DNA of 32,000 bases from Candidatus Chlorohelix allophototropha (GTDB lineage: Bacteria; Chloroflexota; Chloroflexia; Chloroheliales; Chloroheliaceae): the NCBI RefSeq assembly GCF_030389965.1, contig NZ_CP128399.1, forward strand, positions 2,670,799 through 2,702,798, in the 5' to 3' direction. Both the position numbers and the translations under genes were made by a program. Shown piece by piece: positions 3,799 through 17,824 of the stretch. Every line of letters starts with the position of its first letter. The first letter of the stretch is position 1. The notes under the pieces were generated by a model. The model worked only from the letters and a program-made list of their open reading frames with translations, did not search any database and was not told the origin of the DNA.

Positions 3799-5934
3799 TT
3801 ATACTTCTGCTCCAAAAACCAGCTTTATCAATTTCTGATTGACTTTCTGTTTGAGCCGTTCCAGCCGAGAAGGATTAGTGACCACTTTCGCCTCATAGAA
3901 GGAAGGACATAACACGGCGGCGTGTGCTACTTCTCCACACAAACCGCAACCGACACATGTATTGCTGATAGTAGCGATAGGGTCAGCGCGCAAGGGGTTG
4001 GGATTATCCTTTATGGTCAGTGAAGGGCAGCCGTTCACGCGAATACAGCTATGGTCGCCGGTACAAACCGCGTCATCTATCCCAAAACGCGATTGCTCAA
4101 CCCGCTTGCCCTCATCCAACCGCTCTTTCTTTTCCACCTTTTCGTGGCGTTGTCGCTCTAGCATACATTCGCCCACCGAGCGAATGACCTTTAACTCCGA
4201 TTCTTCGCTGGAGAAAGCCTTGTCCAGCACTTTTACCACTTCGCCCACTTTGTAGGGGTTTACCTCCACCACATTTTTAACCCCTGCCGCATGCAACGCC
4301 ATTTCAATGTCCATTGCTTTAAACTTTTCGTGACGGGCATTTTCTTCGGTGCCGGGGTTTTCCTGCTGTCCGGTCATAGAAGTCCAGCCGTTTTCAAAAA
4401 TAACCATTGTGGCATCTTGACTGTTAAAAGTGGCGTTGGCAATGCTGGTGGTTAGCCCGCTGTGCCAGAAAGTGCCATCTCCCAGAAATCCGACTGTTTT
4501 CTGCTCGGTCATTCGCGCCATTGCTCCGGCGCTGGCAAGCCCTGTGCCCATTCCGGTACAGGTATCGGTCATTTCAAAAGGCGCGTACATACCCATAATG
4601 TAACAGCCGATGTCTCCGGCATAATGCGGTAAGCCGTGCTTCTTCTCGGTCAATTTGAGAGCAGAAAAGATGGGACGCTCTGGGCAGCCAGTACAAAAGT
4701 GGGGCAAGCGTAAAGGCAAGCTATCTTCAAATACATTCGCCGCATCATGCAAGTGCTGTGCCAGTTCCGCAGCAATACCGGAGAAATACGTAGCGCCACC
4801 TGGATACACTTCTTTAGAAAGCCATGCAGTTACACTATTCAAAAGAACTGTCGGGGAATATTCCCCCGCTTCGGGCAATACGCCTTTGCCGAATATCTGC
4901 AAGTCGTGCAAGCGATGGCTCTGGGCAATCGCCCTGATTTGAGTTTCAAGGCTATCCGGCATGCCCTCTTCTACTATCAATACCTTTTCTTTATCGCGCA
5001 AAAACTCCACGATTTCTTCGGGAACCAGCGGGTGTATCACATTCAGGTTATAGATTGGGAAATTGCACTGCCCGGTATTATCGGCTTCGCCCAAAACCGT
5101 AAGCGTCCGCAGCAAGGTGTTATAAAGCATGCCCTGTGTAATAAAACCGATGCGTTCATTTTTGCCGGGGAAAAAGTCGTTCAGCTTATTCTCGCGGATA
5201 TAGCGACGGGCGGCAGGCATGCGCTCTTCAAATTTGCGTCTTTCCTGCACCTGACTATAAGGAGGTAAGGGGATTTTGGTCAGTTTATCTTCCCAGCGGG
5301 TTGCCTTGTGGTTCATATTGAACTGCGGAGTGGCATTATCTTCACAAACCAGCGAACCTTTCATGTTTCCAGTGCGAGTGCGGAAAAGATACATTGCGAT
5401 TGTGCCGCTCACTTCGCTCAACTCGAAGCCCTTTTTCACCATATCTGCCATAAGCTGAGAATCGGCACGGGGATCAATACATAAAAGACCCGATTTGTGA
5501 GCATAGGGTAAGGTCTTTTCGGCAACGCTAGTGCTGTTCAAACCATAATCTTCGCCTACGAACACCATTGCGCCCCCGATTAAGCCGGGTTGCGAAATAT
5601 GCGCCAGCGCGTCTGCACCTACGTTGTTGCCGACCACCTTCCAGTTTACGGCACCGCGCACGGGGTTATTGACCGAAGCCTGCAATAAAGCTGCTGCCGC
5701 TGCCTCATTTATCGAGCCTTCAACGTATACGCCGAGAGGTTTTAGAAATTCCTGATAACTGTCTGAAATTGCATCATAGAGGGAAGAGGTGGGCGCACCG
5801 GGGTAACCGCCGAGGTAACTAACACCGCTTTCAAGTAGCGCCTTTAGCACCACCACTGCCATGTCGCCCTTAAGCACCTGCCCCTTTCCGAAATTGAGTT
5901 GACGGAGGGTTTCAGTGGAAAAATTTCTGCCCAT
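3799..5934 (-). CDS. iorA: Indolepyruvate:ferredoxin oxidoreductase alpha subunit (TPP- and 4Fe-4S-binding)
   Basis: TPP-binding signature 'FLGDGTFWHSG...FENGWTSMTGQQ' and 'GDIGCY'. C-terminal Cys clusters 'CTGDHSCIRVNGCP' and 'CVGCGLCGEVAHAAVLCP'. AAGGAG SD ~8 nt upstream of ATG 5934. Confidence 0.85.
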   Translation of the reverse strand: MGRNFSTETLRQLNFGKGQVLKGDMAVVVLKALLESGVSYLGGYPGAPTSSLYDAISDSYQEFLKPLGVYVEGSINEAAAAALLQASVNNPVRGAVNWKVVGNNVGADALAHISQPGLIGGAMVFVGEDYGLNSTSVAEKTLPYAHKSGLLCIDPRADSQLMADMVKKGFELSEVSGTIAMYLFRTRTGNMKGSLVCEDNATPQFNMNHKATRWEDKLTKIPLPPYSQVQERRKFEERMPAARRYIRENKLNDFFPGKNERIGFITQGMLYNTLLRTLTVLGEADNTGQCNFPIYNLNVIHPLVPEEIVEFLRDKEKVLIVEEGMPDSLETQIRAIAQSHRLHDLQIFGKGVLPEAGEYSPTVLLNSVTAWLSKEVYPGGATYFSGIAAELAQHLHDAANVFEDSLPLRLPHFCTGCPERPIFSALKLTEKKHGLPHYAGDIGCYIMGMYAPFEMTDTCTGMGTGLASAGAMARMTEQKTVGFLGDGTFWHSGLTTSIANATFNSQDATMVIFENGWTSMTGQQENPGTEENARHEKFKAMDIEMALHAAGVKNVVEVNPYKVGEVVKVLDKAFSSEESELKVIRSVGECMLERQRHEKVEKKERLDEGKRVEQSRFGIDDAVCTGDHSCIRVNGCPSLTIKDNPNPLRADPIATISNTCVGCGLCGEVAHAAVLCPSFYEAKVVTNPSRLERLKQKVNQKLIKLVFGAEV

Positions 5935-6016
5935 TTACACTACTCCTTGATTCTCTCAAGACCACCTTGTCATGAGATTGGGCGATAAACTTGTTAAGTA
6001 AATCTCCAGAAAATGT

Positions 6017-6036
6017 TGTATTATATGAATAATACA
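6017..6036. promoter_or_regulatory. Perfect 8-4-8 palindrome, candidate operator in the iorA / Lrp-type regulator divergent intergenic region
   Basis: TGTATTAT-atga-ATAATACA, read directly at 6017..6036, in the AT-rich 240-bp gap between divergent genes. Confidence 0.4.
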
Positions 6037-6174
6037 TTAATGCTTGTATGTCAAGCAACTTTCCGACAATCTGACAAGTGTTATAGATAAATTCTATGCA
6101 AAGCGTCGCCACTTGAGCCTATTTTGTTGCATAGTTAATAAGCGAATAGTAGCGTTAGAAGTTTTGTAGGGGGA

Positions 6175-6813
6175 ATGGTAATGGCTGATAATTTTAACGG
6201 TAAGGAAAAATATCAAAATGAATTAAAATGGGGGCGTATGCCCGAAAGCTGGAGAGTAGGCGCACGCGAAGATGCCGGAATCGAATCGGCAGGGCAACCA
6301 CCGCTTGACCAGTTAGATACTGCCATTGCACGTGCCCTCGAAAAGGATAGTCGGATTAGCTTGCTGGAATTATCGCGGCAGCTTGGCACTTCTCGCACCA
6401 CCATCTCGGAACGACTAAATCGGCTGATTGAGCAAGGTGTCATCAAAGGTTTTCATGCTCGACTGGATTACCGAAGGCTTGGCTACCCGATAATTGCTTT
6501 TGTAGGGTTACAAACTTCGCAATCGCAAAAAGCGGTAGAAGTAATCGAGGCGTTAAAGCAAATACCCGAAGTGGAAGAACTGCACACTGTTACCGGGCAA
6601 ATCGATATGCTGGTTAAGTTGCGTGCGCGAAGCACCGAACATTTGCAGCACATCCTGATCTTCAAAATCCAATCTATCCCCGGCATCGGGCGCGGCGAGA
6701 CCATGCTGGCGCTTTCTTCACACCAAGAATGGGCGCCTATCGGTATCGCCCGTCAGCCTGAAACCGATATGAACGGCACAGAGTTTGTCTCGGATGAGGA
6801 AGCCGCGAAATAA
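6175..6813 (+). CDS. Lrp/AsnC-family transcriptional regulator (N- and C-terminally extended)
   Basis: wHTH 'LDQLDTAIARALEKDSRISLLELSRQLGTSRTTISERLNRLIEQGVIKGF' followed by an AsnC-type effector domain ('AFVGLQT...EVEELHTVTGQIDMLVKLRARS'). ATG 6181 is spaced better from the GGGGG run than ATG 6175, so the start is uncertain by 2 codons. Confidence 0.8.
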   Translation: MVMADNFNGKEKYQNELKWGRMPESWRVGAREDAGIESAGQPPLDQLDTAIARALEKDSRISLLELSRQLGTSRTTISERLNRLIEQGVIKGFHARLDYRRLGYPIIAFVGLQTSQSQKAVEVIEALKQIPEVEELHTVTGQIDMLVKLRARSTEHLQHILIFKIQSIPGIGRGETMLALSSHQEWAPIGIARQPETDMNGTEFVSDEEAAK

Positions 6814-6821
6814 CGGGATAT

Positions 6822-7301
6822 TCAATCTTTAAGAGTCTGCAATAACCGGGCAGCCTCTTCCCTGATTCCAGAGTCAATGTGGGTTCGAGCCATCTTTAGC
6901 GGCGCAATGGCGCGCCTATCTCCCATACGCCCCAATGCAATAGCTGCATCGTAATAAGCCCCATCTGCCGGGTCATGCAAGACCGCCAGAAGTGCGGATG
7001 AAGCATGCACATCCGCAATCTGCCCCAACGCCCACACCACAACCCGGCGTGGAGCAGTATCATGCTTATCCACGCTAGTCAGCAATTTCACCAGATAACT
7101 TACTGCCAGCGGGTCACCAATCTGACCGAGCGCCGCCGCCGCAGTAAAGCGCACATTCGGTACACTATCTTTCAGCAACTCGATGAGATACGAAACGGCG
7201 CGCTCATCCCGCATCCGTCCAAGGGCAGAGGCGGCTTGTCGGCGCTTTTCAGGGTCATAGTCGTGCAAAGAACTTATAAGAGTGTCAAATTGATCGTTCA
7301 T
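6822..7301 (-). CDS. HEAT-repeat (PBS-lyase HEAT-like) protein
   Basis: Repeated 'AA.ALG.(I/M)GD..A(V/I)..L..LL.D....VR' units, e.g. 'RRQAASALGRMRDERAVSYLIELLKDSVPNVRFTAAAALGQIGDPLAVSYLVKLL'. Confidence 0.75.
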   Translation of the reverse strand: MNDQFDTLISSLHDYDPEKRRQAASALGRMRDERAVSYLIELLKDSVPNVRFTAAAALGQIGDPLAVSYLVKLLTSVDKHDTAPRRVVVWALGQIADVHASSALLAVLHDPADGAYYDAAIALGRMGDRRAIAPLKMARTHIDSGIREEAARLLQTLKD

Positions 7302-7409
7302 AGGATAGCTGCCAGTATTAGAAACCTTGTAGTGTTTTTAAAGTTAGGTCAATTTTATAGCGATTCGAGGTTTTTATCAATCCTTTTAAAGGAAGAGGCT
7401 GAAGGAATT

Positions 7410-7898
7410 TCAGGGAAGGTGCTCTTGCTCGATTTCTACGCCCAGATAGCGGGTTTCTAGCGAGTCGGAGGAAATATCATCCCAAAAGCGATCTTTCAAA
7501 TAGGTGGGATAGACCGGGAGGTTTACTAATTCGTGGGCATGGAACCAACGGGTGTGCCTTTCCAATTGTTGCGGGTCGGTAACATCTGCAATAGTGGTGG
7601 CGCTCAGTTCACCCGTAAAGCGGCTGATTAGAAAAGCTAACTCAAGATGGTGGCGATGGCGGCTTGGTTCAATAAATTCTCTGAAATATAAAAGCCGACC
7701 TTCGGTTTCTACTTCAAGCCCTGTTTCTTCTCGAAATTCTCGGCGCAACGCCTCAAAAACCGATTTGTCCTGTGATTCTTGCCCACCGCCCGGTAATGTC
7801 CAGAATTCTTCGTGGCTATCGGGAGTATGCTCGTGTACCAGCAAAAGCCTGTTCGCCGCATCAAGCATGACTCCGGCTACTCTGATACGATAATTCAA
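7410..7898 (-). CDS. NUDIX hydrolase
   Basis: Nudix box 'GGGQESQDKSVFEALRREFREETGLE' (GX5EX7REUXEEXGU). The TTG start overlaps the upstream gene's TGA stop (TTGA, 7895-7898). Confidence 0.8.
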   Translation of the reverse strand: MNYRIRVAGVMLDAANRLLLVHEHTPDSHEEFWTLPGGGQESQDKSVFEALRREFREETGLEVETEGRLLYFREFIEPSRHRHHLELAFLISRFTGELSATTIADVTDPQQLERHTRWFHAHELVNLPVYPTYLKDRFWDDISSDSLETRYLGVEIEQEHLP

Positions 7899-9373
7899 TT
7901 GAACTCCAACTCCTTATCCTGAGTGTAGTTCAAACCCAGCTTTAGCGCAATTTCCGCTTTCTGCAACTCGCGCCCCAAATAGCTGTAATGCTCTTCCAGC
8001 GAAGCCAATTTTTCGTGGGCAATCAATAGGCAAAGCTGACGGGCAGTTTTCCCCTCAAAATAATAGGGTGTATTACCTTCGATGGTGCTATGCTGCACCT
8101 TAATCAAACTCCGTTCGCGTTCAAGCTCGATGATAAAATAACCACGCGGGTCGCTACGCCAATCTAAGCGGCGTTTCTTGAAAGAGTCGATGGTATCGAG
8201 CGCGAATTTCCACTTATCGGCATAAATATGTGCCGAGTGTGAAATGATGGTAAGCGCACCAAGCCTCAAGCCCGTGTCGTCCGCGATTTCCTTTTGCAGT
8301 TTGCGCAAGGCATAGGTATTTTGTGCCCACGCGGTGTAAATATCGTGACTACGGAAACGGGCGGTCATATAAAGTGCGCCATCCTGTACCCCTGCCGAAA
8401 CTTCCAGCAAACAGGGCGGGTTATCACCCACGCTATCCTGTTCGACATCCCACGTCACCGCCACGGCGCGGCGGGTATGGTGCGCCTCGCGCAAACGCTC
8501 TTTCATCCGCGCAATTTGGTCGTGACCTTCCTCACCGAATGAACGCAGCCGTTCTCCATAGGTATAGGCTATTCCGGGTTCTTTCTCCGCGCTCAGGATT
8601 TTGGGATAGTAATTTTCTAGTTCGGCGCGACTAAAAGGCAAGTAATCAGCCCAAACGATGTCATCAGGGTTTTCATCGGTGATTACCGCTACCGTATTGT
8701 AAATCTCGCGCTGTTGCTGAGAATACTCAGTAGGCTTGATTTGCCCGAAGCGCATCACCAATTGCATTACTTCCAGCCATGTTTCGGCAACAGTTTCGCC
8801 CTGTACCCGAAATCCGGTGCGTTCGCTGGGTAGCGCCTTGCCGCCTTCTGGGGCAAGTTCGGGGAAAGTGCGAGGTTCGGCAAAAGGAGGAAGCGTAGCC
8901 AACTTAGCCAGTTCTAGCTTGATTTGCTCGGCAATTGCTTCGGGGTTTTTAGGATAGCCTTTAGCCGGACGCAAGTCAATGAGTTGCACCTGTTGGCGCA
9001 ATTCCTCCCACGCTTCGAGGGGAATACCTTCATCCAGTTTAGCCTGTGTGCCGGGAATAGTATGGTTCGCGCCAAGCCCTTTGGCAAAAAAGCTTGCCAA
9101 CGCTTCCCCGGTAGAGGATTGGTCAGCGCCACAAAGTATAAGGTAGCGTATTTGGGGAAACATGAAGATATTACGCGCCATCAGGTTGATACCCGCAAAG
9201 CTGTAAAGGTTGGCGCAGATGAAATAATCCGCAGTATCCAGTTTTTGGGCTATCAGATGACGCTGAGTCCAGAGGGTGCAAATGCCCACATTAGATTCAG
9301 GGTTGCCGATTTGGAGGTCTTTATAACTTATAAGATCGGTCAAATTATAAGTTGCGCCAAGTTCTGCGGTCAT
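7895..9373 (-). CDS. Fusion protein: N-terminal MtrA-like domain + C-terminal thymidylate-synthase (ThyA)-fold domain
   Basis: C-terminal ThyA catalytic signature is conserved: 'RRAVAVTWD', 'NPPCLLEVS' (nucleophile Cys), 'RFRSHDIYTAWAQNTYAL' (R-S-x-D plus Asn), 'HSAHIYADKW' (H..Y). The N-terminal 'VGICTLWTQ...ANLYSFAGINLMARNIFMFPQIRYLILCGADQSSTGEALASFFAKGL' follows the MtrA-like pattern (..TL.. / ..N..IR.lilcG.. / G.aL..l..nG). ATG at 9373. Confidence 0.7.
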   Translation of the reverse strand: MTAELGATYNLTDLISYKDLQIGNPESNVGICTLWTQRHLIAQKLDTADYFICANLYSFAGINLMARNIFMFPQIRYLILCGADQSSTGEALASFFAKGLGANHTIPGTQAKLDEGIPLEAWEELRQQVQLIDLRPAKGYPKNPEAIAEQIKLELAKLATLPPFAEPRTFPELAPEGGKALPSERTGFRVQGETVAETWLEVMQLVMRFGQIKPTEYSQQQREIYNTVAVITDENPDDIVWADYLPFSRAELENYYPKILSAEKEPGIAYTYGERLRSFGEEGHDQIARMKERLREAHHTRRAVAVTWDVEQDSVGDNPPCLLEVSAGVQDGALYMTARFRSHDIYTAWAQNTYALRKLQKEIADDTGLRLGALTIISHSAHIYADKWKFALDTIDSFKKRRLDWRSDPRGYFIIELERERSLIKVQHSTIEGNTPYYFEGKTARQLCLLIAHEKLASLEEHYSYLGRELQKAEIALKLGLNYTQDKELEFN

Positions 9374-9376
9374 TTA
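9292..9376 (-). repeat. Direct-repeat copy A (functional 5' end of the ThyA-like gene), left boundary of the AT-rich islet
   Basis: Aligns without gaps to 12506..12590, with about 71/85 identical positions by hand count. Blocks are identical at both ends: 'tagattcag' and 'tctgcggtcattta'. Weaker similarity continues through the RBS to ~9388 / ~12603. Confidence 0.85.
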
Positions 9377-9395
9377 TTGCTATCCCAAAGCTTTG

Positions 9396-10463
9396 TTAAT
9401 TATATTTTGTAGTTGGAAGATGAGGACCAATATATCCAATTATAATTTTACTTTCTGTAGTGGTTTGATATGGATAAAAATGCAATCTCCAAGCATTTTG
9501 TGGGAGTGAACAATGCCATTCAAACGTTCTAGTTTGACCATCGGGACAAACAAAAGTTCGTTTAGACGCATATTCTGCATTATTCATTGTAGACTCGCTT
9601 TCCTTTCGAGGTTCTCCACTTACTTGTGAAAAATCAAATGATCCTCGAGTCCGAGTACATGCTACCCTTTCAAGCTCTAATAATCGTTTTTTTATTGATC
9701 CAACCAGCTGATTTCCGTTAAGTAAGCCTTTTAGAGCATTACCAACTGAATCACAAAAATCTAATGATGGGAAAAATTCGTGTATGTTATCCCATAAATC
9801 TTTACCGTTATTAATCTTATCCAGCCGTTCAGCTTGTTCGGATGGAAGGTCGGTAGGTGAGAAAATTAGTGGGAATTTTTCCCGGATAATTTTGTCTGTA
9901 GGTAATTGTATATTTGGATCGATGGTTTCAATTTCTACCTCTATGTCAAGATGAGTAGAAACAGAAGTTAATTTTAATGTTGCTATATTTAATCCTATAC
10001 CAAAACTATGTTGGTGAAATTTACAGGCTGTTGCAGTTGTTAATAACTCACCAATTCGCTTTTTATTTTCTTCAAGAATTTGTCTAAAAATAAATTCATT
10101 TGGCAAAATTTCAATTGTTTTATGTATGGCTAAATGCCCTAAGGCATCAAATTTATTTTCTATGTCACCAATAATGGACTCTTCATCATTATTTTTATCC
10201 CTAAAAAACTGATTCAATTTTTGTGTAATCGATATAATTCTTTTGCTATTAATCCCATATCTTCTAAAATCTTCAAACATAGGGAATTTTTGATTATTTA
10301 TAAGATTGTATGTACATTTCGTGGAATGGAACCATTTATATGGCGAATTTGTGGCTTCAATAAGCCATGCCTCAAGAGCATCTACCCATTCTTCAACTGT
10401 AATTTTTTCAGCAGTATCAGAGGGTAATGTCAAAATATGAGGGTCAATAAGAAAACTTATCAA
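9396..10463 (-). CDS. Hypothetical protein, partner of the islet ATPase; candidate effector, no domain recognised
   Basis: 355-aa ORF with AT-rich codon usage matching the ATPase gene. Its TTG start overlaps the ATPase TGA stop (TTGA at 10460-10463). The next in-frame Met is codon 62. C-terminal motif: 'CPDGQTRTFEWHCSLPQNAWRLHFYPYQTTTESKIIIGYIGPHLPT'. I could find no HNH, TOPRIM (E..DxD) or clear PD-(D/E)xK motif. Confidence 0.7.
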   Translation of the reverse strand: MISFLIDPHILTLPSDTAEKITVEEWVDALEAWLIEATNSPYKWFHSTKCTYNLINNQKFPMFEDFRRYGINSKRIISITQKLNQFFRDKNNDEESIIGDIENKFDALGHLAIHKTIEILPNEFIFRQILEENKKRIGELLTTATACKFHQHSFGIGLNIATLKLTSVSTHLDIEVEIETIDPNIQLPTDKIIREKFPLIFSPTDLPSEQAERLDKINNGKDLWDNIHEFFPSLDFCDSVGNALKGLLNGNQLVGSIKKRLLELERVACTRTRGSFDFSQVSGEPRKESESTMNNAEYASKRTFVCPDGQTRTFEWHCSLPQNAWRLHFYPYQTTTESKIIIGYIGPHLPTTKYN

Positions 10464-12334
10464 GACCTACCCTCCACTCGACTAATAATACTCTCTGATG
10501 TAATGATGCTTTCTTGAATTAAGGTTTCATCAAAGAACCCTTCAGGCCAGTTTTCGATAGCGCCATCTGATGAAATTTGGATTTTTTCAAAAGTGGTAGA
10601 GCCTGAGTCATCTTGCTTGGCAAAATATATAACGCAGTCACTTTTTTCCTGACCACCCGCTTGGACAATATGTAAACGAAGTTGGTTAATTAGGTTTTCA
10701 CTATGAGTTTCAACCAAACATTGTTTGCCACACTTAACCAATCCCACTAGAAAATCTCCTAATCTTGATTGTACTCTAGGATGCAAGTGGAGTTCCGGTT
10801 GTTCTACAATTAATAGTGTTCCTTTTGGGGCTAATAAACCCATTACCAGAATTGGGAGTATTTGGCTTACACCTACGCCAACTGCAGTTAGAGGCAAAGG
10901 GGCATTACCTTGCTTTGGAATAATTTGCCAAATTACGCCAGTTTGTCCTGCAACCTCAATTTGGACGCGCTCTCCGACATTTAAATACTTAACCCAATTA
11001 TCCAATGCATTTTTTAATTTATCCTTGTTTATATGTGATTCATAAGGATTATAATACTCTACAAAGTTATTTTGATTCGTATCATAAACATAGGCTGCAT
11101 ATTCTCCTCTGATACCAACATCATCAACTTCACTGCTTGGAGAAAATCTTTGCGCAGCTTGGGGATCTGCACGTAATGGACCTAAATAGCGAATTCGTCG
11201 TGTGAAATATTTGGCGATGTAATCTGATATTCGCTGCCATACTTCTAATTCAGGATTTTCAAAGGAAATTATTTCAATTCCCTCATCACTGCTATTAGGA
11301 AGTTCTTCATGTTTTAAGTATTCTTCGGTTATTAACGCTAGTATTAATCTATAGGCTGAAATAGTATTCCTTCTAAGGTGTAAGAGTTGTATTTTTTGGA
11401 GCCACTTGAATAAATCAAGTAATTTATCTCCTTCAAAGGAGGGGCTTATTTCAAGTTTATTCAACAAATCAAAGAAGTTTTGTTTGAAGTCTGAATCAAG
11501 CTCGATATCTTGAATCTCTTTATTTAAGGCAGTTGATCGCGTTGTTTTAGGAAAAGAAGTCATTTCTCTTAAATTCACTCTTCTCTCGAATAAATCAGAA
11601 AAGTATCTTTCATACTCTCTTTTTTTACGTTCTACCAACGAGTATTTTCCATAAAATCTTCTCGGGATAAAATGAGAAAGAGAAACTAAATATTCTTTCT
11701 TTTGTCCACCTTTATCAACTTTTACGAAGTAAGTTTTGTCGTCATCACCAAACAAGGATTTATAAATATTGTCTGGGATAACATTCGAAAAAAAAGTTCC
11801 CCTTAGTGTTTGATCCATTTCGGCAATATTTAATTGGTGCAGATTTTTAGGATTATTTTCTTCCGGGAAAAGCTCCATTTGATATAGCAACGATCTAGTT
11901 TCTAATTTTATAGATTTAAGAGATATTTTTGAAGCTTGATCACTTGAAACAGTTTGTTTATTTGGGATTAAACCACTAAATTTAGCGGAAACCTTTACAG
12001 TATCATTCAATGATTCTCTGGGTTTTCGCGAGGGAGCTCGGTCTATTGGTACTATTTGATCTAAATCCAATTCAAAATCAAGCTCGATAGTTTTATTTCT
12101 TGATTTGTTTTTTAATATATCCTTAAATTGACCAAGTTGAAGAAATAATCCATTAATTATCAACGGGCGATCAGCAATTGGGTTACTCAGTGTTTGAGCA
12201 ACCATCAAGATTGACTGTAGAATACTACTTTTCCCTGAGCTATTCTGTCCCGATAGCACAGTAAGCCCTGCTAATTCAAGCTCACCTGAGTCATCTATTG
12301 GTTTAAAACGTTTTATTCTCCACATCTTTAGCAT
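10460..12334 (-). CDS. ABC/SMC-type (AAA_15/AAA_21-like) ATPase with a ~440-aa insert and a C-terminal 'WPEGFF' module
   Basis: Walker A 'GQNSSGKSS' (aa 29-37, nt 12224..12250). Signature-like 'GVGVSQILPIL'. Walker B/D-loop 'LLIVEQPELHLHP' (aa 507-519, nt 10778..10816). H-loop 'ETHSE'. C-terminal 'ENWPEGFFDE'. ATG at 12334 with AAGGCAGG upstream. Confidence 0.85.
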   Translation of the reverse strand: MLKMWRIKRFKPIDDSGELELAGLTVLSGQNSSGKSSILQSILMVAQTLSNPIADRPLIINGLFLQLGQFKDILKNKSRNKTIELDFELDLDQIVPIDRAPSRKPRESLNDTVKVSAKFSGLIPNKQTVSSDQASKISLKSIKLETRSLLYQMELFPEENNPKNLHQLNIAEMDQTLRGTFFSNVIPDNIYKSLFGDDDKTYFVKVDKGGQKKEYLVSLSHFIPRRFYGKYSLVERKKREYERYFSDLFERRVNLREMTSFPKTTRSTALNKEIQDIELDSDFKQNFFDLLNKLEISPSFEGDKLLDLFKWLQKIQLLHLRRNTISAYRLILALITEEYLKHEELPNSSDEGIEIISFENPELEVWQRISDYIAKYFTRRIRYLGPLRADPQAAQRFSPSSEVDDVGIRGEYAAYVYDTNQNNFVEYYNPYESHINKDKLKNALDNWVKYLNVGERVQIEVAGQTGVIWQIIPKQGNAPLPLTAVGVGVSQILPILVMGLLAPKGTLLIVEQPELHLHPRVQSRLGDFLVGLVKCGKQCLVETHSENLINQLRLHIVQAGGQEKSDCVIYFAKQDDSGSTTFEKIQISSDGAIENWPEGFFDETLIQESIITSESIISRVEGRS

Positions 12335-12425
12335 AAATCAACCTGCCTTACTTGTTATAAATTATAAAAATTTCTTAACATTTGGATTTTTCAGTGCAAA
12401 AATAAGTTTAGAGCAATTCTGAAAA

Positions 12426-12587
12426 CTAGAGCGCAAAGAAGGTTAAATAAGTCGCGTTTGTAACAAGCAAGTCATTACAATGTAAATATTCACTTCCAAA
12501 TTTTGTAGATTCAGAACTGCCGATTTGTAGGTCTTTAAAACTGATAAGGTCGGTAATGTTAAAAGCTGCGTCAAGCTCTGCGGTCAT
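12426..12587 (-). pseudogene. Relic 5' fragment of the ThyA-like gene, stranded behind the ancestral RBS and promoter
   Basis: ATG 12587 is preceded by a strong SD (GGGAGG). It encodes MTAELDAAFNITDLISFKDLQIGSSES, which matches 20/27 residues of MTAELGATYNLTDLISYKDLQIGNPES at the start of the intact gene. The frame then runs into islet DNA and stops at a TAG (12426-12428), 53 codons in total. Confidence 0.75.
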
Positions 12588-12590
12588 TTA
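12506..12590 (-). repeat. Direct-repeat copy B (relic gene 5' end), right boundary of the AT-rich islet
   Basis: See copy A. The repeats are in the same orientation and 3214 bp apart start to start. Confidence 0.85.
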
Positions 12591-12612
12591 TAACTACCTC
12601 CCTGAAAACGAC

Positions 12613-12687
12613 TAATCCACAAATTTGTGTGGTTATCCACAACTGCTAGGCACAAGGCATTAAAAAATTACTATATATTGTGGATAA
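12613..12687. promoter_or_regulatory. Cluster of DnaA-box 9-mers
   Basis: TAATCCACA (12613-12621, one mismatch), TTATCCACA (12633-12641, perfect) and TGTGGATAA (12679-12687, perfect on the minus strand), read against the TTATCCACA consensus. An AT-rich tract (aaaaaattactatatatt) lies between the boxes. Confidence 0.55.
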
Positions 12688-12742
12688 CTTAGAAGGTCTA
12701 ACATGTTTTACCATAATGAGCGGGATATGTCAATATAATTCA

Positions 12743-12772
12743 GTGGGTAAACGGTGGGTAAATATATTTACC
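12743..12772 (+). promoter_or_regulatory. Tandem GTGGGTAAA repeats (11-bp phasing) overlapping a perfect 16-bp palindrome; candidate operator upstream of the paa-type promoter
   Basis: GTGGGTAAA at 12743-12751 and 12754-12762. GGTAAATATATTTACC at 12757-12772 is its own reverse complement. It lies ~20 bp upstream of the -35 element at 12791. Confidence 0.4.
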
Positions 12773-12790
12773 TGATTTTCAGGTTATACC

Positions 12791-12819
12791 TTGACAGCCC
12801 CCGCAACGGGGAACATAAT
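12791..12819 (+). promoter_or_regulatory. Sigma70-like promoter for the PaaX-like/paaK operon
   Basis: TTGACA (12791-12796), a 17-nt spacer, then CATAAT (12814-12819). The -35 hexamer coincides with the TTG 'start' of track ORF 12791..13177, which argues against that long form. Confidence 0.5.
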
Positions 12820-12907
12820 ATGCTACAGAATTTTCACTATCGTGCAAATTTCGTTGTATGTTGTGAGAAAAGACTCAAGCAGCTATATTTGCTCTGAGGT
12901 AGTACAA

Positions 12908-13177
12908 ATGCTCCCGCGTTCAATGTTCTTTACGCTTTACGGGGTTTATATCCGGCATTTTGGTGAAGAAATCCGCATGGGCAGCCTGATAAGATTGCTG
13001 GCAAAGGATTGGCGCGGCGGTGAAGCTTTTGACCTTTTCCGGCGCTATGACGGTTTGTTAGCTGAAGGAGCAGGACGTTATTTTTATCGGCTTTATACGC
13101 CTGATGTTTCAGCCGCCCTCGATGAAAAAGCTATTAGAGGGTTACGCGCTCAGCTTGACCCTTTCAGCGTTAGTTGA
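12908..13177 (+). CDS. Small PaaX-N-terminal-like winged-helix protein (~89 aa); may be a truncated PaaX remnant
   Basis: 'SMFFTLYGVYIRHFGEEIRMGSLIRLLA...GRYFYRL' parallels the PaaX N-terminal pattern (S.LYGD....GGEIW.GSL..LL....GR.S.Y.L). ATG 12908 has a GAGGT SD ~7 nt upstream. The ~200-aa PaaX C-terminal domain is absent. Confidence 0.45.
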   Translation: MLPRSMFFTLYGVYIRHFGEEIRMGSLIRLLAKDWRGGEAFDLFRRYDGLLAEGAGRYFYRLYTPDVSAALDEKAIRGLRAQLDPFSVS

Positions 13178-13195
13178 AAATATGACAAAAGTGAG

Positions 13196-14539
13196 ATGAA
13201 TAGAATGTATTTCAACGCCGAAATAGAAACTATGCCCCGCGATGAGTTGCGGAAATTGCAACTGGAACGCCTTAAACAAACGCTTGGCTATGCTTATACA
13301 AAAGTGGCTTTCCATCAGCACCAGTTTCAACAAGCCAATGTTACGCCTGATTCGTTGCATACGCTGGAAGATTTGAACAAATTCCCCTTCATAACCAAAC
13401 CACAATTGCGAGAAAATTACCCGTTCGGGCTGTTCGCGGTCAAGCCCAACGATAAGGATAAAATAGTGCGTCTGCACGCTTCCAGCGGCACAAAAGGCAA
13501 ACCGACAGTAGTGGGTTACACCGCCCACGATATAGAAGTATGGGCGGAGAGTTGCGCCCGCGCAATCGCCTGCGCGGGAGGCAAACCCGGTGATGTGTTG
13601 CATGTGGCATATGGCTACGGGCTTTTCACGGGCGGGTTAGGCTTGCACTACGGAGGCGAGAAACTCGGCGCGTGTGTGATACCCGCATCTGGAGGCAATA
13701 CGCCACGTCAGATATTATTGATGCAAGATTTTCAAGCGCAAGGGCTGTGCTGTACCCCTAGTTATGCCTTGAATCTGGCAGAATATCTCAAAGAGCATAA
13801 TATCCCGTTGGAAAGTCTGAATCTCAAGTACGGTATTTTGGGTGCAGAACCCTGGACTGAGGAAATTCGGGTCAAGGTTGAGGAGGGCTTGGGCTTGATT
13901 GCGCTGGACATCTACGGGTTGAGCGAAATCACCGGACCGGGCGTATCAATGGAATGTCCGTACAAACAGGGCTTGCATATCTGGGAAGATTATTACCTAC
14001 CGGAAATAATAAACCCTGCTACCCTCGAACCCTTACCGGACGGTGAAATCGGCGAACTGGTCTTTACTACGCTGGCAAAAGAAGCCATCCCTATGATTCG
14101 TTACCGCACCGGCGACTTGTGTAACCTAACCTACGAAAAATGCGATTGCGGACGCACGCATGCCCGCATGGGCAAAATCAAAGGGCGCATAGATGACATG
14201 CTGATTGTGCGTGGCATCAATGTTTTCCCTTCCGAGATTGAGCGCGTGCTACTGGAATTTGAGGAACTCGCGCCACATTATCAGATTGTGCTGGAGCGCC
14301 CGGAAGTGCTGGATGTTGTGACGGTTCATTGCGAATCCACCACCGCCTTTACAGTGAGTGTCTTCGGAGATGCCGAGCATGACGAGGAACATCATCTTTT
14401 GAGCAGTTTGCGTCAACATATTATGTTGAAACTGAGAGAGGGTCTGGGAGTCAGTTTGCAGGTGAAAATCAACCCACCTCACACCATTCCCCGCAGCGAA
14501 GGCAAAGCGGTGCGCGTAGTGGATAATCGACCAAAATAA
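13196..14539 (+). CDS. paaK: Phenylacetate-CoA ligase
   Basis: N-terminus 'MYFNAEIETMPRDELRKLQLERLKQTL' is typical of PaaK. AMP-binding motifs 'SSGTKGKPT', 'YGLSE' and 'YRTGD' are present. The start may be ATG 13205 (MYFN...) rather than 13196. Confidence 0.9.
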   Translation: MNRMYFNAEIETMPRDELRKLQLERLKQTLGYAYTKVAFHQHQFQQANVTPDSLHTLEDLNKFPFITKPQLRENYPFGLFAVKPNDKDKIVRLHASSGTKGKPTVVGYTAHDIEVWAESCARAIACAGGKPGDVLHVAYGYGLFTGGLGLHYGGEKLGACVIPASGGNTPRQILLMQDFQAQGLCCTPSYALNLAEYLKEHNIPLESLNLKYGILGAEPWTEEIRVKVEEGLGLIALDIYGLSEITGPGVSMECPYKQGLHIWEDYYLPEIINPATLEPLPDGEIGELVFTTLAKEAIPMIRYRTGDLCNLTYEKCDCGRTHARMGKIKGRIDDMLIVRGINVFPSEIERVLLEFEELAPHYQIVLERPEVLDVVTVHCESTTAFTVSVFGDAEHDEEHHLLSSLRQHIMLKLREGLGVSLQVKINPPHTIPRSEGKAVRVVDNRPK

Positions 14540-14571
14540 AATTCTTATAGCTAATAATCGTGAGGAAAAAC

Positions 14572-14880
14572 ATGGTTGTTATGGTAGCGCTGTACAAAGA
14601 ACCCGCCAACCGGGCAGAATTTGATAAATATTATTGGGAAACACATTTGCTGCTTGCCGGAAAAATCCCCGGCTTGTTAAAAAGTGAAGTATGCACCTTT
14701 TACGAACTAGAGGGCGGGGGTGAGCTTCCCTATTACCTAATGACCAAACTTTATTTTAACAGCAAGGAAGAAATGGCAGCCGCTTTCGCCACCCCTGAAG
14801 GACGCGCTACCGCCAAAGACCTGCGGAATTTCACCACACCGAGCAGTGTCACCATCACTTACGCCGAAGTTAAAGAATAA
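14572..14880 (+). CDS. EthD-family (TIGR02118-like) small protein
   Basis: 'MVVMVALYKEPANRAEFDKYYWETHLLLAGKIPGL' fits the EthD-domain N-terminal pattern. ATG 14572 follows a GAGGAAAAAC SD. The upstream GTG 14560 in the track lies within the SD. Confidence 0.6.
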   Translation: MVVMVALYKEPANRAEFDKYYWETHLLLAGKIPGLLKSEVCTFYELEGGGELPYYLMTKLYFNSKEEMAAAFATPEGRATAKDLRNFTTPSSVTITYAEVKE

Positions 14881-14896
14881 GAAAGGGTATGGATAA

Positions 14897-15673
14897 ATGG
14901 GCTTTGAGAATATTATCTATGCGAAAGTGGGAGTAGGTATCGCTAAGGTAACGCTGAATCGCCCCGAAGCGATTAACGCTTACACGCTGCTGATGCTAGG
15001 CGAGATGGCAGAGGCGTTTGCACAAGCCAAAGCCGATTCTGAAGTTCGCACCGTTATTCTGACCGGGGCAGGGCGTGGTTTCTGCGCAGGGGCTGACCTA
15101 CGCACCACCAGCACAATGGATTTTGAGAACGCACTACGTACCTATTATCGCCCTATGATTGAAGGCATTACCGGAATGGGTAAACCTGTAATCGCAATGG
15201 TAAACGGAGTAGCAGCGGGCGCGGGTATGTCCACCACTCTCGCTTGTGATTTCCGGGTAGCAGCTACTAACACACGCTTTGTAACCGCCTTCTCTAAAAT
15301 AGGGTTAGTGCCAGACGCGGGTATGTCATACCATCTACCGCGCCTTATCGGAATTGCCCGCGCTCAGGAAATGATTTCTCTGAACCGGGATGTGAGCGGG
15401 GAAGAAGCGGTATCAATAGGCTTAGCAACCAAAGTAGTAGCCCCTGAAGAACTTGAAAAAGCTACGCTGGAAATGGCGCACTCGCTGGCTAATACCACTA
15501 CGCTGGCTTTTGGCATAACTCGCCAGATGTTGCATAGCGCCTTGCAGATGACTCTGGATGAAGCGTTGGCACAGGAAGAAAAGAATCAGGCAATTGCCGG
15601 AGCGAGCGAAGATTTCAAAGAAGGGGTAGCCGCCTTTATGGAGAAACGCGCCCCAAATTTCAAAGGGAAGTAA
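14897..15673 (+). CDS. Enoyl-CoA hydratase/isomerase (crotonase family; PaaG/PaaF-like)
   Basis: Crotonase oxyanion-hole motifs 'ILTGAGRGFCAGADL' and 'IAMVNGVAAGAGMS'. Confidence 0.85.
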   Translation: MGFENIIYAKVGVGIAKVTLNRPEAINAYTLLMLGEMAEAFAQAKADSEVRTVILTGAGRGFCAGADLRTTSTMDFENALRTYYRPMIEGITGMGKPVIAMVNGVAAGAGMSTTLACDFRVAATNTRFVTAFSKIGLVPDAGMSYHLPRLIGIARAQEMISLNRDVSGEEAVSIGLATKVVAPEELEKATLEMAHSLANTTTLAFGITRQMLHSALQMTLDEALAQEEKNQAIAGASEDFKEGVAAFMEKRAPNFKGK

Positions 15674-15704
15674 TTTTTTGAAGTAGTTGTAAGGAGAAGT
15701 ACAA

Positions 15705-16523
15705 ATGGCAACCACTATTACTATGAGTGAAGCTGAGATTGAAGCGGCAATGCTGGCAAAAATCGAGAATGGCGAAAAGCTTGAGCCAAACGACCCGATG
15801 ACCGCCGAATACCGCGAGTTGCTGCTGAACCTGCTTACCATGCAAGCGGATAGCGAGCTTTCCGGCGGGTACGGCTATATCCCATGGATTAGCCAAGCGC
15901 CCACCATCGAGGAAAAATTGATTGTTGCCAATATTGTGCGGGACGAGATTTTGCATGGCAAACGCATGTATAAATTGCTGGAAGATTTGGGGGTAGAAGT
16001 CGATTCGCGTATCAGGGAAAACGATGAAGCTTTTCTGTATCGGCTGGACGATAACAGCGCCAACATCGGGACACAACGCGCCAAAACCGATAAGCGGGTT
16101 AACATCTTCTACTACCCGATTGAAACTTGGACTGATTTTATAATGTTCAATTTCTGCATGGATCGCGGAGCGGGTCACCAATTGCATGATGCGCTACATT
16201 GCAGCTACGCACCATGGGCGCGGGTCACCGAACAAATCTTCAAGGAAGAGGTAACACATGTGGCGCATGGCGAGAAGTGGGTAAAGAAATTGGCACAAGA
16301 CCCCGCAACCCGCGAGGAATGTCAGCAAACCTTTAACAAATGGTATCTGCGCACGATGAACATATTCGGGCGCGGTAACAGCCCCAAAAACGCGCTGTAT
16401 CGCAAATATCGCCTCAAGTTGCGCGATAACGATGAAGTGCGCGATACTTTTCATCGGGAAGTGGTTGAATTGGTTACAAAGTGGGGGCTGACCGTACCGG
16501 AATGGAAACCGGAGAATATATAA
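15705..16523 (+). CDS. PaaA/PaaC-family ferritin-like di-iron protein (phenylacetyl-CoA epoxidase subunit A-like)
   Basis: 'LLTMQADSELSG', 'RDEILHGKRMYKLLEDLG' and 'FKEEVTHVAHGEKW' give E..H di-iron ligand pairs in a PaaA-like context. AAGGAG SD 8 nt upstream. Confidence 0.7.
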   Translation: MATTITMSEAEIEAAMLAKIENGEKLEPNDPMTAEYRELLLNLLTMQADSELSGGYGYIPWISQAPTIEEKLIVANIVRDEILHGKRMYKLLEDLGVEVDSRIRENDEAFLYRLDDNSANIGTQRAKTDKRVNIFYYPIETWTDFIMFNFCMDRGAGHQLHDALHCSYAPWARVTEQIFKEEVTHVAHGEKWVKKLAQDPATREECQQTFNKWYLRTMNIFGRGNSPKNALYRKYRLKLRDNDEVRDTFHREVVELVTKWGLTVPEWKPENI

Positions 16524-16566
16524 CGAGCGTTATATATTCAGCCGAGAAAAATAAGGGAAATAGGCG

Positions 16567-17766
16567 ATGGAAGAAGCGGTAATTGTCTCGGCAGTGCGCA
16601 CCCCTATTGGGCGGTATGGAGGCGCATTGGCAACAGTGCGCCCGGATAATTTGGGCGCAATCGTTATTGCCGAAGCAATCAGGCGCACAGGTATAGAAGC
16701 AAGCATGGTTGAAGATGTAATCTTCGGCTGTGCCAATCAGTCGGGCGAAGATAACCGCAACGTGGCACGTATGAGCCTTTTGCTGGCAGGCTTGCCCATT
16801 GAAACGGCGGGTGTAACGGTGAATCGTTTGTGCGGTAGCGGACTGCAAGCGGTAAACGATGCGGCACGTGCCATCAAAGTGGGCGAGGGCGAGGTACTAA
16901 TAGCTGGCGGAGTAGAGAGTATGACCCGCGCTCCTTTTGTAATGGCAAAACCCACCGAGGCATGGCAGCGGGGCAACCCAACTTTGCATGATACTACGCT
17001 CGGTTGGCGTTTCATCAATCCGCGCCTTTCCGAGATGTACTACCCTTACAACATGGGCGAAACCGCCGAAAACGTGGTGGACAAGTATAAAATCAGTCGA
17101 GAAGATCAGGATTTGTTCGCCTACAATTCGCAGAAGCGCGCCACCAATGCTATCGGTGAGGGAAAGTTCAAAGCAGAGATTGTTCCGGTGAAAGTGCCCC
17201 AACGCAAAGGCGAACCGTTTCTGTTTGATACGGACGAACACCCCCGCGCCGATACTACTTTGGAAGCTCTTGCAAAACTCAAACCCGCTTTCCGCAAGGA
17301 TGGAACTGTAACCGCCGGAAATAGTAGCGGCATCAATGATGGGGCTGCTGCGCTGGTGCTGATGTCCGGCAGCAAAGCAGCACAATTGGGTTTGAAACCT
17401 TTGGCGCGGATAGTGACATCAGCGGTGGCAGGGGTTGACCCGGCTACTATGGGGCTTGGACCTATTCCTGCCAGTCGCAAGGCGTTGCAACGCGCCGGGC
17501 TTACGGTAGCTGACTTAGATTTAATTGAGATTAACGAAGCCTTTGCTAGCCAAAGCCTCGCATGTATGCGCGAACTAGGACTCGACCCCGAAAAGGTGAA
17601 CGTGAACGGCGGCGCAATCGCGCTAGGGCACCCGCTTGGTTGTAGCGGGGCGCGCATGCTTACTACTCTTTTATACGAGATGGAACGGCGCGGCTCAAGA
17701 TATGGGCTGGCGACTATGTGCATCGGGGTAGGGCAGGGCATCGCAACTATCATAGAACGACTATAA
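16567..17766 (+). CDS. Acetyl-CoA C-acyltransferase / 3-oxoadipyl-CoA-type thiolase (PaaJ/FadA-like)
   Basis: Thiolase active-site motifs '[12 protein letters not shown]' (Cys nucleophile), 'NEAFASQ' and '[20 protein letters not shown]'. Confidence 0.9.
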
Positions 17767-17792
17767 ACTCCCTTATCTCCTGCTTTTAAAAG

Positions 17793-17824
17793 ACCCTCGG
17801 CTTGTTATTTTACCGAGGGTTTTT
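17793..17824 (+). terminator. Rho-independent terminator of the paa-type operon
   Basis: 8-bp stem accctcgg (17793-17800) / ccgagggt (17813-17820), a 12-nt loop, then TTTT. Confidence 0.7.

Follow-up and report, generated by a model that had tools for sequence, protein, structure and literature searches.

Within a 32,000-nucleotide stretch of the genome of Candidatus Chlorohelix allophototropha (RefSeq contig NZ_CP128399.1, positions 2,670,799 to 2,702,798 of the forward strand; hereafter the window), an AT-rich islet carries two overlapping genes that are homologous to two of the three components of Menshen, the NsnA-NsnB-NsnC defence system reportedly described by Millman and colleagues in 2022. 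One gene encodes an ABC ATPase related to NsnB and enlarged by a long insertion, whereas the other encodes a two-domain partner that ends in an NsnC-type module. The same pair is conserved across many phyla, and NsnA does not accompany it. We read the islet, with a probability of roughly 0.65, as a self-contained, NsnA-less, Menshen-related cassette whose ATPase would control a RelE/YoeB-like RNase effector.

Both genes lie on the minus strand. A preliminary description made from the sequence of the window had reported them as same-strand genes joined by a TTGA overlap. Indeed, the TTG start of the partner (10463-10461) overlaps the TGA stop of the ATPase (10462-10460), which gives TTGA on that strand. 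This TTG start is credible, because the homologues of the partner begin at the same N-terminal residues when aligned (MISVLIDP, MARVLIDP, MANIVIDP). The features of the two genes are the following, with coordinates given as positions in the window.

10460..12334, minus strand: nsnB-type ATPase gene, 624 amino acids (aa), from the list of open reading frames (ORFs)
12224..12250, minus strand: Walker A motif GQNSSGKSS, residues 29-37, with K35; without variation among 43 long ATPases and the short NsnB
11210..12067, minus strand: insertion, residues ~90-375 (~280 residues), not present in the canonical ~370-aa NsnB according to the alignment
10778..10816, minus strand: Walker B region LLIVEQPELHLHP, residues 507-519, read from the sequence
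10697..10711, minus strand: H-loop ETHSE, residues 542-546; E542, T543, H544 and S545 invariant
10517..10645, minus strand: DUF3696 C-terminal tail, residues ~564-606 (Pfam PF12476)
9396..10463, minus strand: partner (nsnC-like) gene, 355 aa, from the ORF list
9849..10463, minus strand: N-terminal domain of the partner, residues 1 to ~205; family-specific, common to the partners of long ATPases
9399..9836, minus strand: C-terminal effector module of the partner, residues ~210-355; Menshen NsnC type

The relationship of the ATPase to NsnB is apparent from profile searches. Pfam assigns it to AAA_15 (E-value of 1.7e-24), AAA_21 (4e-17) and DUF3696 (2.6e-11), and its best PADLOC model is NsnB (1.6e-77, 260 bits), followed by HEC-03B (6.5e-52, 175 bits) and PDC-M55A (4.3e-43). 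The PADLOC matches to AriA (1e-28), GajA (~1e-11) and PtuA, which are weak and range from 1e-28 to 1e-9, are of the ATPase-motif level, as is that to Old, and the NCBIfam model for PtuA yields 26.8 bits where its cutoff stands at 500. As a control, the proteins of a canonical three-gene locus (L003; related loci are numbered with L, and proteins with P) scored 1e-144 for NsnA, 1e-124 for NsnB and 1e-101 for NsnC. The Walker A, Walker B and H-loop motifs named in the preliminary description are all present as described, and they are invariant among relatives. The Walker B site reads L507-LIVEQPELHLHP-P519, where E511, P513, E514 and H516-P519 do not vary, and the short NsnB carries LENPEAHLHP in its place. 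Likewise, the DUF3696 tail keeps W596, P597, G599, F600, F601, D602 and E603 (NWPEGFFDE) invariant in both the long ATPases and the short NsnB. Sequence searches of the PDB with the ATPase, the alignment of the partner and the profile of its N-terminal domain returned a sole match, namely, OLD 6p74 for the ATPase (3.7e-5). Foldseek, using the AlphaFold2 model of the ATPase (pLDDT, for predicted local distance difference test, of 78; pTM, for predicted template modelling score, of 0.78), placed Rad50/SMC heads and retron/Septu PtuA at the top of its matches. A housekeeping RecF/SMC/Rad50 identity was considered and rejected, as the NCBIfam scores fall far under their cutoffs and a close relative (L013) lacks the gene.

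When compared with the short NsnB of two three-gene loci (L003 and L005), the insertion of the window ATPase follows the Walker A region and precedes the C-terminal lobe, and because of it the NsnB match is split in two stretches. Three of its residues are invariant across 43 long homologues (S130, H221, P224) and six nearly so (A131, E133, A134, S220, F222, L223), which argues that the insertion is under constraint. In the structural model, it is formed by a beta-rich part (residues 82-232) and a helical part (233-340). Payne et al. placed the specificity determinants of defence ABC ATPases where this insert region lies (10.1101/2024.01.29.577857), and by analogy a sensing role may be proposed for it. 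ATPases of intermediate length (~507-549 aa) were also encountered, at loci L018 and L019 and in proteins P0154, P0166, P0168, P0169, P0172, P0183 and P0189. They are 60-65% identical to the window ATPase over its C-terminal ~40-45%, and their partners belong to the same family, so the size of the insertion varies within the clade.

The partner protein, in turn, was described at the outset as an effector that does not look like the known ones, and lacking HNH, TOPRIM and clear PD-(D/E)xK motifs. The latter part agrees with our results, since Pfam detects no domain in the whole protein, whether HNH, TOPRIM, PD-(D/E)xK, PIN or BECR. The former part is contradicted by the C-terminal module, which matches the PADLOC models of NsnC (PDLC03912, 7.8e-39; PDLC03879, 1.1e-36) over residues ~210-354 only. 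These C-terminal ~145 residues align with the NsnC proteins of three-gene Menshen operons (P0003 from Scytolyngbya, P0004 and others), at ~32-48% identity over the module and 28-35% over the full length, with some 50 invariant positions that include FCDSV, RTFxCPDGQxR, H317, W325-R326 and IIGYIGxH348L.

The C-terminal module is modelled with high confidence (pLDDT above 90 at residues ~210-355, against 40-75 at residues 1-205). Its best sensible Foldseek match in the PDB is YoeB/ParE 6n90 (probability of 0.80; template modelling score normalized to the target, TM, of 0.68), and others are RelE 2kc8/4fxe (TM of 0.63) and YoeB 7v5y. The module thus resembles RelE/YoeB/ParE toxins, with TM values to the target of 0.53-0.68 that are non-significant, and it shares with them a C-terminal beta-sheet and conserved His/Arg residues near the end (WRxHF, GYIGxH). 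It differs from these toxins in its fusion to an N-terminal region of ~200 aa and in its pairing with an ATPase instead of a small antitoxin; no antitoxin ORF is found at the locus in the ORF list. Among the 15 families of NsnC effectors, nine are BECR RNases, and PB-BECR1, with an H-R-H triad, is the prevalent one (PMC12065111). Based on these observations, the module most likely adopts a RelE/YoeB-like (BECR) fold with a putative RNase activity. It is probably a PB-BECR1, taken as a provisional label, and H317, R326 and H348 may correspond to the residues of the triad.

The N-terminal domain of the partner has no match in Pfam, in PADLOC or, at the sequence level, in the PDB, and its comparison with one canonical NsnC N-terminal family by hhalign gave a probability of 2%. 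It has a beta1-Asp motif (LIDP) of PIN-like character, although the remaining acidic residues are not conserved. By analogy with canonical NsnC, this domain probably serves for docking, with the DUF3696 tails holding it. The partners of other long ATPases (L007-L009) have a different C-terminus, without any PADLOC match, and judging from these sequences the C-terminus of the partner is exchanged by domain shuffling, as described for NsnC.

The pair is a recurrent genomic unit. More than 960 relatives of the ATPase are found in the protein database, mostly of 610-660 aa and labelled as 'DUF3696 domain-containing protein'. A scan of species-representative genomes detected the long ATPase together with the ~350-aa partner in at least 578 of them, from many phyla. 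We kept 80 loci, from Chloroflexota, Cyanobacteria, Myxococcota, Bacteroidota, Pseudomonadota, Actinomycetota, Acidobacteriota, Bacillota, Planctomycetota and others, and these provided 78 loci with an ATPase ORF, 76 partners and 74 nearest upstream genes for the counts that follow. In 70 of the 78 loci, the stop of the ATPase overlaps with or abuts an ORF on the same strand that has 200 aa or more, in most cases ~330-360 aa. An N-terminal domain is common to 64 of the 76 partners, as determined with an iterated hidden Markov model (HMM). A full HMMER scan of 1.84 billion proteins recovered 258 representative clusters (50% identity) with this domain, whose full-length members are nearly all of ~330-365 aa and carry it from residue 1; the same profile gave 17 matches only in a database of 5.8 billion proteins searched through a word prefilter. 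Among 62 partners other than that of the window, approximately five match NsnC models, and none has a meaningful Pfam domain. Closer context look-ups at four loci (L001, L007, L008, L009) showed in every case an ATPase of 626-644 aa overlapping a gene of 351-355 aa, and no GmrSD_N gene within 6 kb.

The absence of NsnA is equally consistent. It is not found among the 74 nearest upstream genes, and the NsnA profile has no match in 3450 ORFs of the related loci. The single GmrSD_N match among the upstream genes is a complete GmrSD on the opposite strand, not an NsnA. Nor did the ORFs that were scanned over the 32 kb of the window include any DUF262/GmrSD_N protein.

These features can be placed against what is known of Menshen. 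In that system, NsnA combines ParB-DUF262 and ParBDB and is the presumed DNA sensor; NsnB is an ABC ATPase with a DUF3696 helix, whose predicted tetramer clamps NsnC by means of paired DUF3696 tails; and NsnC consists of an N-terminal inactive PIN (inPIN) followed by a variable C-terminal effector (PMC12065111). In the predicted canonical complex, NsnB4-NsnC2, the tail clamps the N-terminal domain of NsnC, and NsnB only transduces a signal that comes from NsnA (PMC12065111). Menshen has been validated in S. silvestris, and it associates with BREX and restriction-modification (R-M) systems (PMC12065111). The islet shares with Menshen an ABC ATPase with an AAA_15 core and a DUF3696 tail carrying the NWPxGFFDE motif; the order of an ATPase gene and an overlapping gene for a two-domain effector, whose C-terminal module is of a canonical NsnC type; and, at the family level, the shuffling of effector domains among partners and the association with BREX and methylase genes. 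In contrast to Menshen, NsnA is missing from the window and from 74 out of 74 related loci; the window-type ATPase measures ~620-650 aa rather than ~370, due to ~280 extra residues in the insert; its Walker B reads VEQPE instead of LENPE; and the N-terminal domain of the partner is a separate sequence family, not identified as inPIN.

Other defence systems are further away. HEC-03 consists of two genes, for an ABC ATPase and a PIN protein, both of which are needed to defend Escherichia coli, where its expression is toxic (10.1101/2024.01.29.577857). The islet resembles HEC-03 (Payne et al. 2024) in having two genes and no DUF262, and HEC-03B is the second-best model for its ATPase. It differs in that the ATPase scores better with NsnB (260 bits) than with HEC-03B (175 bits) and has 624 aa against a model of 458 positions, and in that the HEC-03 partner is VapC-like, presumably an active PIN, whereas the window partner carries a RelE/YoeB-like C-terminal module and matches neither the HEC-03 partner in PADLOC nor PIN in Pfam. 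Septu (PtuAB), PARIS (AriAB) and Gabija (GajAB) are alike in that an ABC ATPase oligomer holds or regulates a toxic effector, but the window partner does not have the HNH, Toprim or DUF4435 nuclease of these systems.

The pair arrived at its present location as an insertion, whose features are listed below together with those of the host gene.

9383..12505: inserted cassette, absent from L013, with 34.1% guanine plus cytosine (GC)
9292..9382: direct repeat copy A, functional 5' end of the ThyA-like gene (-9 to +82), adjoining the cassette; from a repeat search and a three-way alignment
12506..12596: direct repeat copy B, orphan ThyA-like 5' end, continuous with the native upstream region
12426..12587, minus strand: orphan ORF, 53 aa, a duplicated ThyA-like N-terminus (MTAELDAAFNITDLISFKDLQIGS...) continuing into cassette DNA
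7895..9373, minus strand: ThyA-like host gene, 492 aa (Pfam/NCBIfam)

The decisive comparison is with L013, a metagenome contig of a close relative whose ThyA-like protein is 92% identical (~88% at the nucleotide level). Its positions 5398-5767 correspond to 12885-12508 of the window, and its positions 5679-8234 to 9382-6822, with no islet in between; therefore, the cassette is a real insertion. The two copies of the 91-nucleotide (nt) direct repeat are 82% identical and spaced by 3214 nt, and in L013 the region upstream of the gene is collinear with the outer flank of copy B (12597-12885). The preliminary description makes no mention of this repeat. Both copies are mosaic relative to L013, such that the three-way alignment gives no clear answer as to which is ancestral. 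An exact-protein look-up of the ThyA-like gene returned L010-L012, all with the same filled locus, and the empty site was seen in the metagenome relative. The orphan ORF, which starts in copy B and has no Pfam match, mimics with its own N-terminus the N-terminus of the ThyA-like protein, MTAELGATYNLTDLISYKDLQIGN.

Composition points in the same direction. GC content is 34.1% in the islet against 49.8% and 46.5% in its left and right flanks, and GC at third codon positions is 26% for the ATPase and 20% for the partner but 54-55% for neighbouring host genes. The contrast noticed in the preliminary description is thus real, although its figures (27-35% against 50-58%) were slightly overstated, while the limits that it gave, 9377-12505, nearly coincide with the ends of the insertion as set by the repeat and the empty site. 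The pair was acquired horizontally, as evidenced by the empty site in L013, the GC contrasts and the flanking 91-nt repeat; and the earlier proposal of an AT-skewed, horizontally acquired pair of the defence type is upheld by these data, together with the defence and BREX-like contexts of homologues and the two-gene layout of 70 of 78 loci.

The cassette separates the start codon of the ThyA-like gene from its promoter, with 91 nt of the 5' end of this gene duplicated. The stop of nsnC lies 22 nt ahead of the ThyA-like ATG, and ~170 bp separate the start of nsnB from the flanking repeat. Given the first of these distances, the host gene is likely transcribed through the cassette, and the two cassette genes and the ThyA-like gene are probably co-transcribed from the native promoter. 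Neither in the cassette nor elsewhere in the window is there an integrase, a transposase, a tRNA or an Rfam family.

A second case of flanking repeats was found in L008 (Ktedonosporobacter), where a 48-nt repeat with 75% identity (5605-5652 and 9202-9249, spaced by 3597 nt) brackets the pair. This repeat comprises the last ~10 codons of the upstream aminotransferase gene (...LLTAVKALFRG*) and an orphan counterpart (...LLTAIKALF*), and GC is 46% between the copies and 56-58% outside, with no recombinase inside. Repeats of at least 30 nt were not found at five other loci examined, and thus two loci out of seven, that of the window and L008, have them. Cassettes of the type known as CIME are integrated elements flanked by att sites and devoid of an integrase. 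The islet is similar to them in its small cargo unit, its imperfect direct repeats that copy the end of a host gene and its recombinase-free interior; since the repeat duplicates the gene end, the host gene stays intact. It is dissimilar in that no cognate integrase or parent element was found, in that the copies of the repeat are mosaic with respect to the empty site, and in that repeats occur in two of the seven loci. Possible origins of the repeats are an att-flanked, integrase-less cassette moved in trans, and homology-facilitated illegitimate recombination from a diverged donor.

Contextual evidence of a defence role comes from other members of the family. The GC of the pair is usually below that of the flanking DNA, as in L001, L007, L008 and L009, and in the last of these an IS66 transposase is found close by, together with a serine recombinase. 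In Acetobacter ascendens, plasmid pAP1447-2 (L095; NZ_CP021526.1, 8836-11653) carries an overlapping pair of 605 and 335 aa, annotated in RefSeq as 'DUF3696 domain-containing protein' and 'hypothetical protein'. On this conjugative plasmid, two identical IS5 transposase genes flank the pair in a composite-transposon-like arrangement, and stabilisation genes and a RelE/ParE-RelB module are found in its vicinity.

Defence genes appear among the neighbours as well. The nearest upstream gene encodes a DNA methylase (N6_N4) of ~930 aa in 9 of 74 loci (L024, L025, L026, L052, L053, L063, L079, L086 and L093), where it abuts that of the ATPase and is typically preceded by a DUF6079 protein, and DUF6079 is itself the nearest upstream neighbour in two further loci; the upstream ORF of L063 has no Pfam match. 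Cas1 and a stand-alone GmrSD were found once each, and one ORF in the position of the partner matches BrxA models. This set of methylase, DUF6079 and BrxA looks BREX-like in view of the gene content of BREX, and the pair seems embedded in BREX-like loci in at least 11 of the 74 cases.

As for the immediate surroundings of the islet, the window otherwise consists of housekeeping DNA from the metagenome-assembled genome of a phototrophic Chloroflexi, including paa genes, BchF, PucC, Nramp and CorA. The ThyA-like gene unites, in an unusual fusion, an MtrA-like N-terminus with a thymidylate-synthase-like core and a pterin-binding DUF4346 C-terminus, and its product scores 165.4 bits with NCBIfam TIGR03283, slightly under the cutoff of 174.55; the gene overlaps by 4 nt with that of a NUDIX hydrolase. 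On the other side, a 128-aa ORF (12791-13177, plus strand) matches positions 2-31 only of the 70 positions of the PaaX Pfam model, and is probably a truncated PaaX-type regulator bordering the paa cluster. This cluster (~12886-17817; PaaK-like ligase, EthD, enoyl-CoA hydratase, PaaA/C and thiolase) is absent from L013 (3204-5377), where the region upstream of the ThyA-like gene is next to a BNR/sortilin-like gene. The paa segment has a host-like GC of 50%, and the difference may mean either that L013 lost it by deletion or that its acquisition is older.

A mechanism can be proposed if Menshen, Septu, PARIS and HEC-03 are taken as analogues. An oligomer of the ATPase would keep the effector inactive, with the DUF3696 tails bound to the N-terminal domain of the partner, as in NsnB4-NsnC2. 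The enlarged insert of the ATPase would then sense a phage component, in place of NsnA; a change in ATP binding or hydrolysis would release or activate the RNase module; and cleavage of phage or host RNA would abort the infection.

Several observations weigh against a self-contained cassette of this kind. Canonical Menshen requires three genes, and the absence of NsnA in the source genome refers to the 32-kb window rather than to the whole genome. The best PADLOC models span only part of both the ATPase and the partner. In the latter, the Pfam match to BECR is missing, Foldseek against the PDB gives nothing at E ≤ 1e-3 (the best E-value being 0.36), which makes the likeness to RelE/YoeB non-significant, and the comparisons do not show the N-terminal domain to be PIN-like (pLDDT of 40-75, hhalign probability of 2% and no PDB match). 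A scan for consensus promoters and terminators performed no better than on shuffled sequence. The anti-phage function is putative, as it is drawn from homology and genomic context. Moreover, the ATPase of L011, which is the same locus in sample SRR24769763 (5041-6855), has a 1-bp deletion at ~nt 1688, besides a C>T change at 1178, and the frameshift leaves a protein of 604 aa without the DUF3696 tail; this could be an assembly error, or decay or an inactivating variant in that population.

The frameshift is, in fact, what could be expected if the pair was a decayed, non-functional remnant of a three-gene Menshen operon that lost nsnA, which would also account for both proteins matching Menshen models in the absence of NsnA, and sporadic domain loss is on record for this system (PMC12065111). 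However, we consider a remnant very improbable: across many phyla, 70 of 78 loci keep a long ATPase in a two-gene layout, and none has an adjacent NsnA; both ORFs of the window are intact with all catalytic motifs in place, and the ATPase is longer than NsnB, not truncated; the N-terminal domain of the partner is a dedicated family; and the empty site shows that what arrived was a repeat-bounded two-gene unit, which ends ~170 bp upstream of nsnB. It is somewhat less improbable, but still unlikely, that the pair is a transducer and its effector that continue to depend on a sensor encoded elsewhere, be it NsnA/DUF262, another protein or a neighbouring BREX. Such a dependence would fit the canonical model, in which NsnB only transduces the signal of NsnA (PMC12065111), and the location of the pair directly after BREX-like genes (DNA methylase or DUF6079) in at least 11 of 74 loci, and our inspection of the source genome covers 32 kb. 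Yet the neighbours are unrelated housekeeping genes at most loci, among them the window, L001, L007 and L008, the two genes of the cassette move as one unit, HEC-03 works with two, and the conserved ~280-aa insertion of the ATPase could do the sensing.

A comparably low probability is assigned to a toxin-regulator module of the addiction or abortive type, devoted to self-maintenance or directed at plasmids and mobile elements rather than specifically at phages. The resemblance of the effector module to RelE/YoeB/ParE toxins, the toxicity of HEC-03 in E. coli, and the occurrence of the pair as mobile cargo, on a conjugative plasmid beside stabilisation and RelE/ParE genes, speak for it; its homology to the validated defence families Menshen and HEC-03, the BREX-like or R-M contexts of some loci and the lack of a small antitoxin gene speak against it. 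Finally, that the partner has no Pfam domain, and that most partners of the family lack a PADLOC match, might be taken to indicate a wholly new system unrelated to any named one, but this notion is refuted by the strong NsnB and NsnC matches in PADLOC, the DUF3696 tail and the shared effector module, all of which tie the pair to Menshen. Going beyond the NsnA-less Menshen-related cassette, a more specific version of it would be an autonomous, NsnA-independent system that uses the ~280-aa insertion as its phage sensor and spreads as an integrase-less cassette of ~3.1-3.6 kb, which lands where housekeeping genes begin or end and either brings with it or generates an imitation of that gene end. 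This version is tentative, and we find it less likely than not.

Since both proteins map to a named system, with NsnB for the ATPase (1.6e-77) and NsnC for the C-terminal module of the partner, the pair is not a categorically new system. Thus, of the suggestion that it was a new system or a new variant, only the variant survives, in view of the missing NsnA, an ATPase some 250 aa longer and a different N-terminal family in the partner; and the PADLOC search, proposed beforehand as a way to assign the proteins to a known system, did so in part. The co-occurrence of homologue pairs, which the preliminary description had proposed to examine, is seen in 70 of 78 loci, some of them in defence-island or BREX-like contexts. 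No description of the NsnA-less form was found in PADLOC v2.0.0 or in the searchable literature, a scope that does not extend to a 2026 BECR preprint using the term 'Menshen-like'. The features that this literature does not cover are the NsnA-less architecture, the long ATPase, the dedicated N-terminal family of the partner, and a breadth of at least 578 genomes.

There is likely an annotation gap behind this, as PADLOC has no model for most of the partner proteins of the long-ATPase family. System-level rules that demand all three Nsn genes would not call two-gene loci. The published census of Menshen, which mentions sporadic domain loss, was seeded on NsnA, so an NsnA-less form would have gone unfound (Li et al. 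NAR 2025, PMC12065111). Together with the gap in PADLOC and the generic labels in RefSeq, this implies that hundreds of species may carry an uncounted defence module.

For the mechanism of Menshen, and in particular for the signalling from NsnA to NsnB, the NsnA-less pair offers a simpler system of two proteins in which the trigger and the control of the effector may be addressed. In addition, the filled and empty sites, with their duplicated gene end, usefully illustrate the entry of very small defence cassettes into core operons that stay undisrupted. If the pair proves to be autonomous, with the insert as its sensor, it would represent a second, simpler sensor architecture of the Menshen type, with an unusual mode of spreading.

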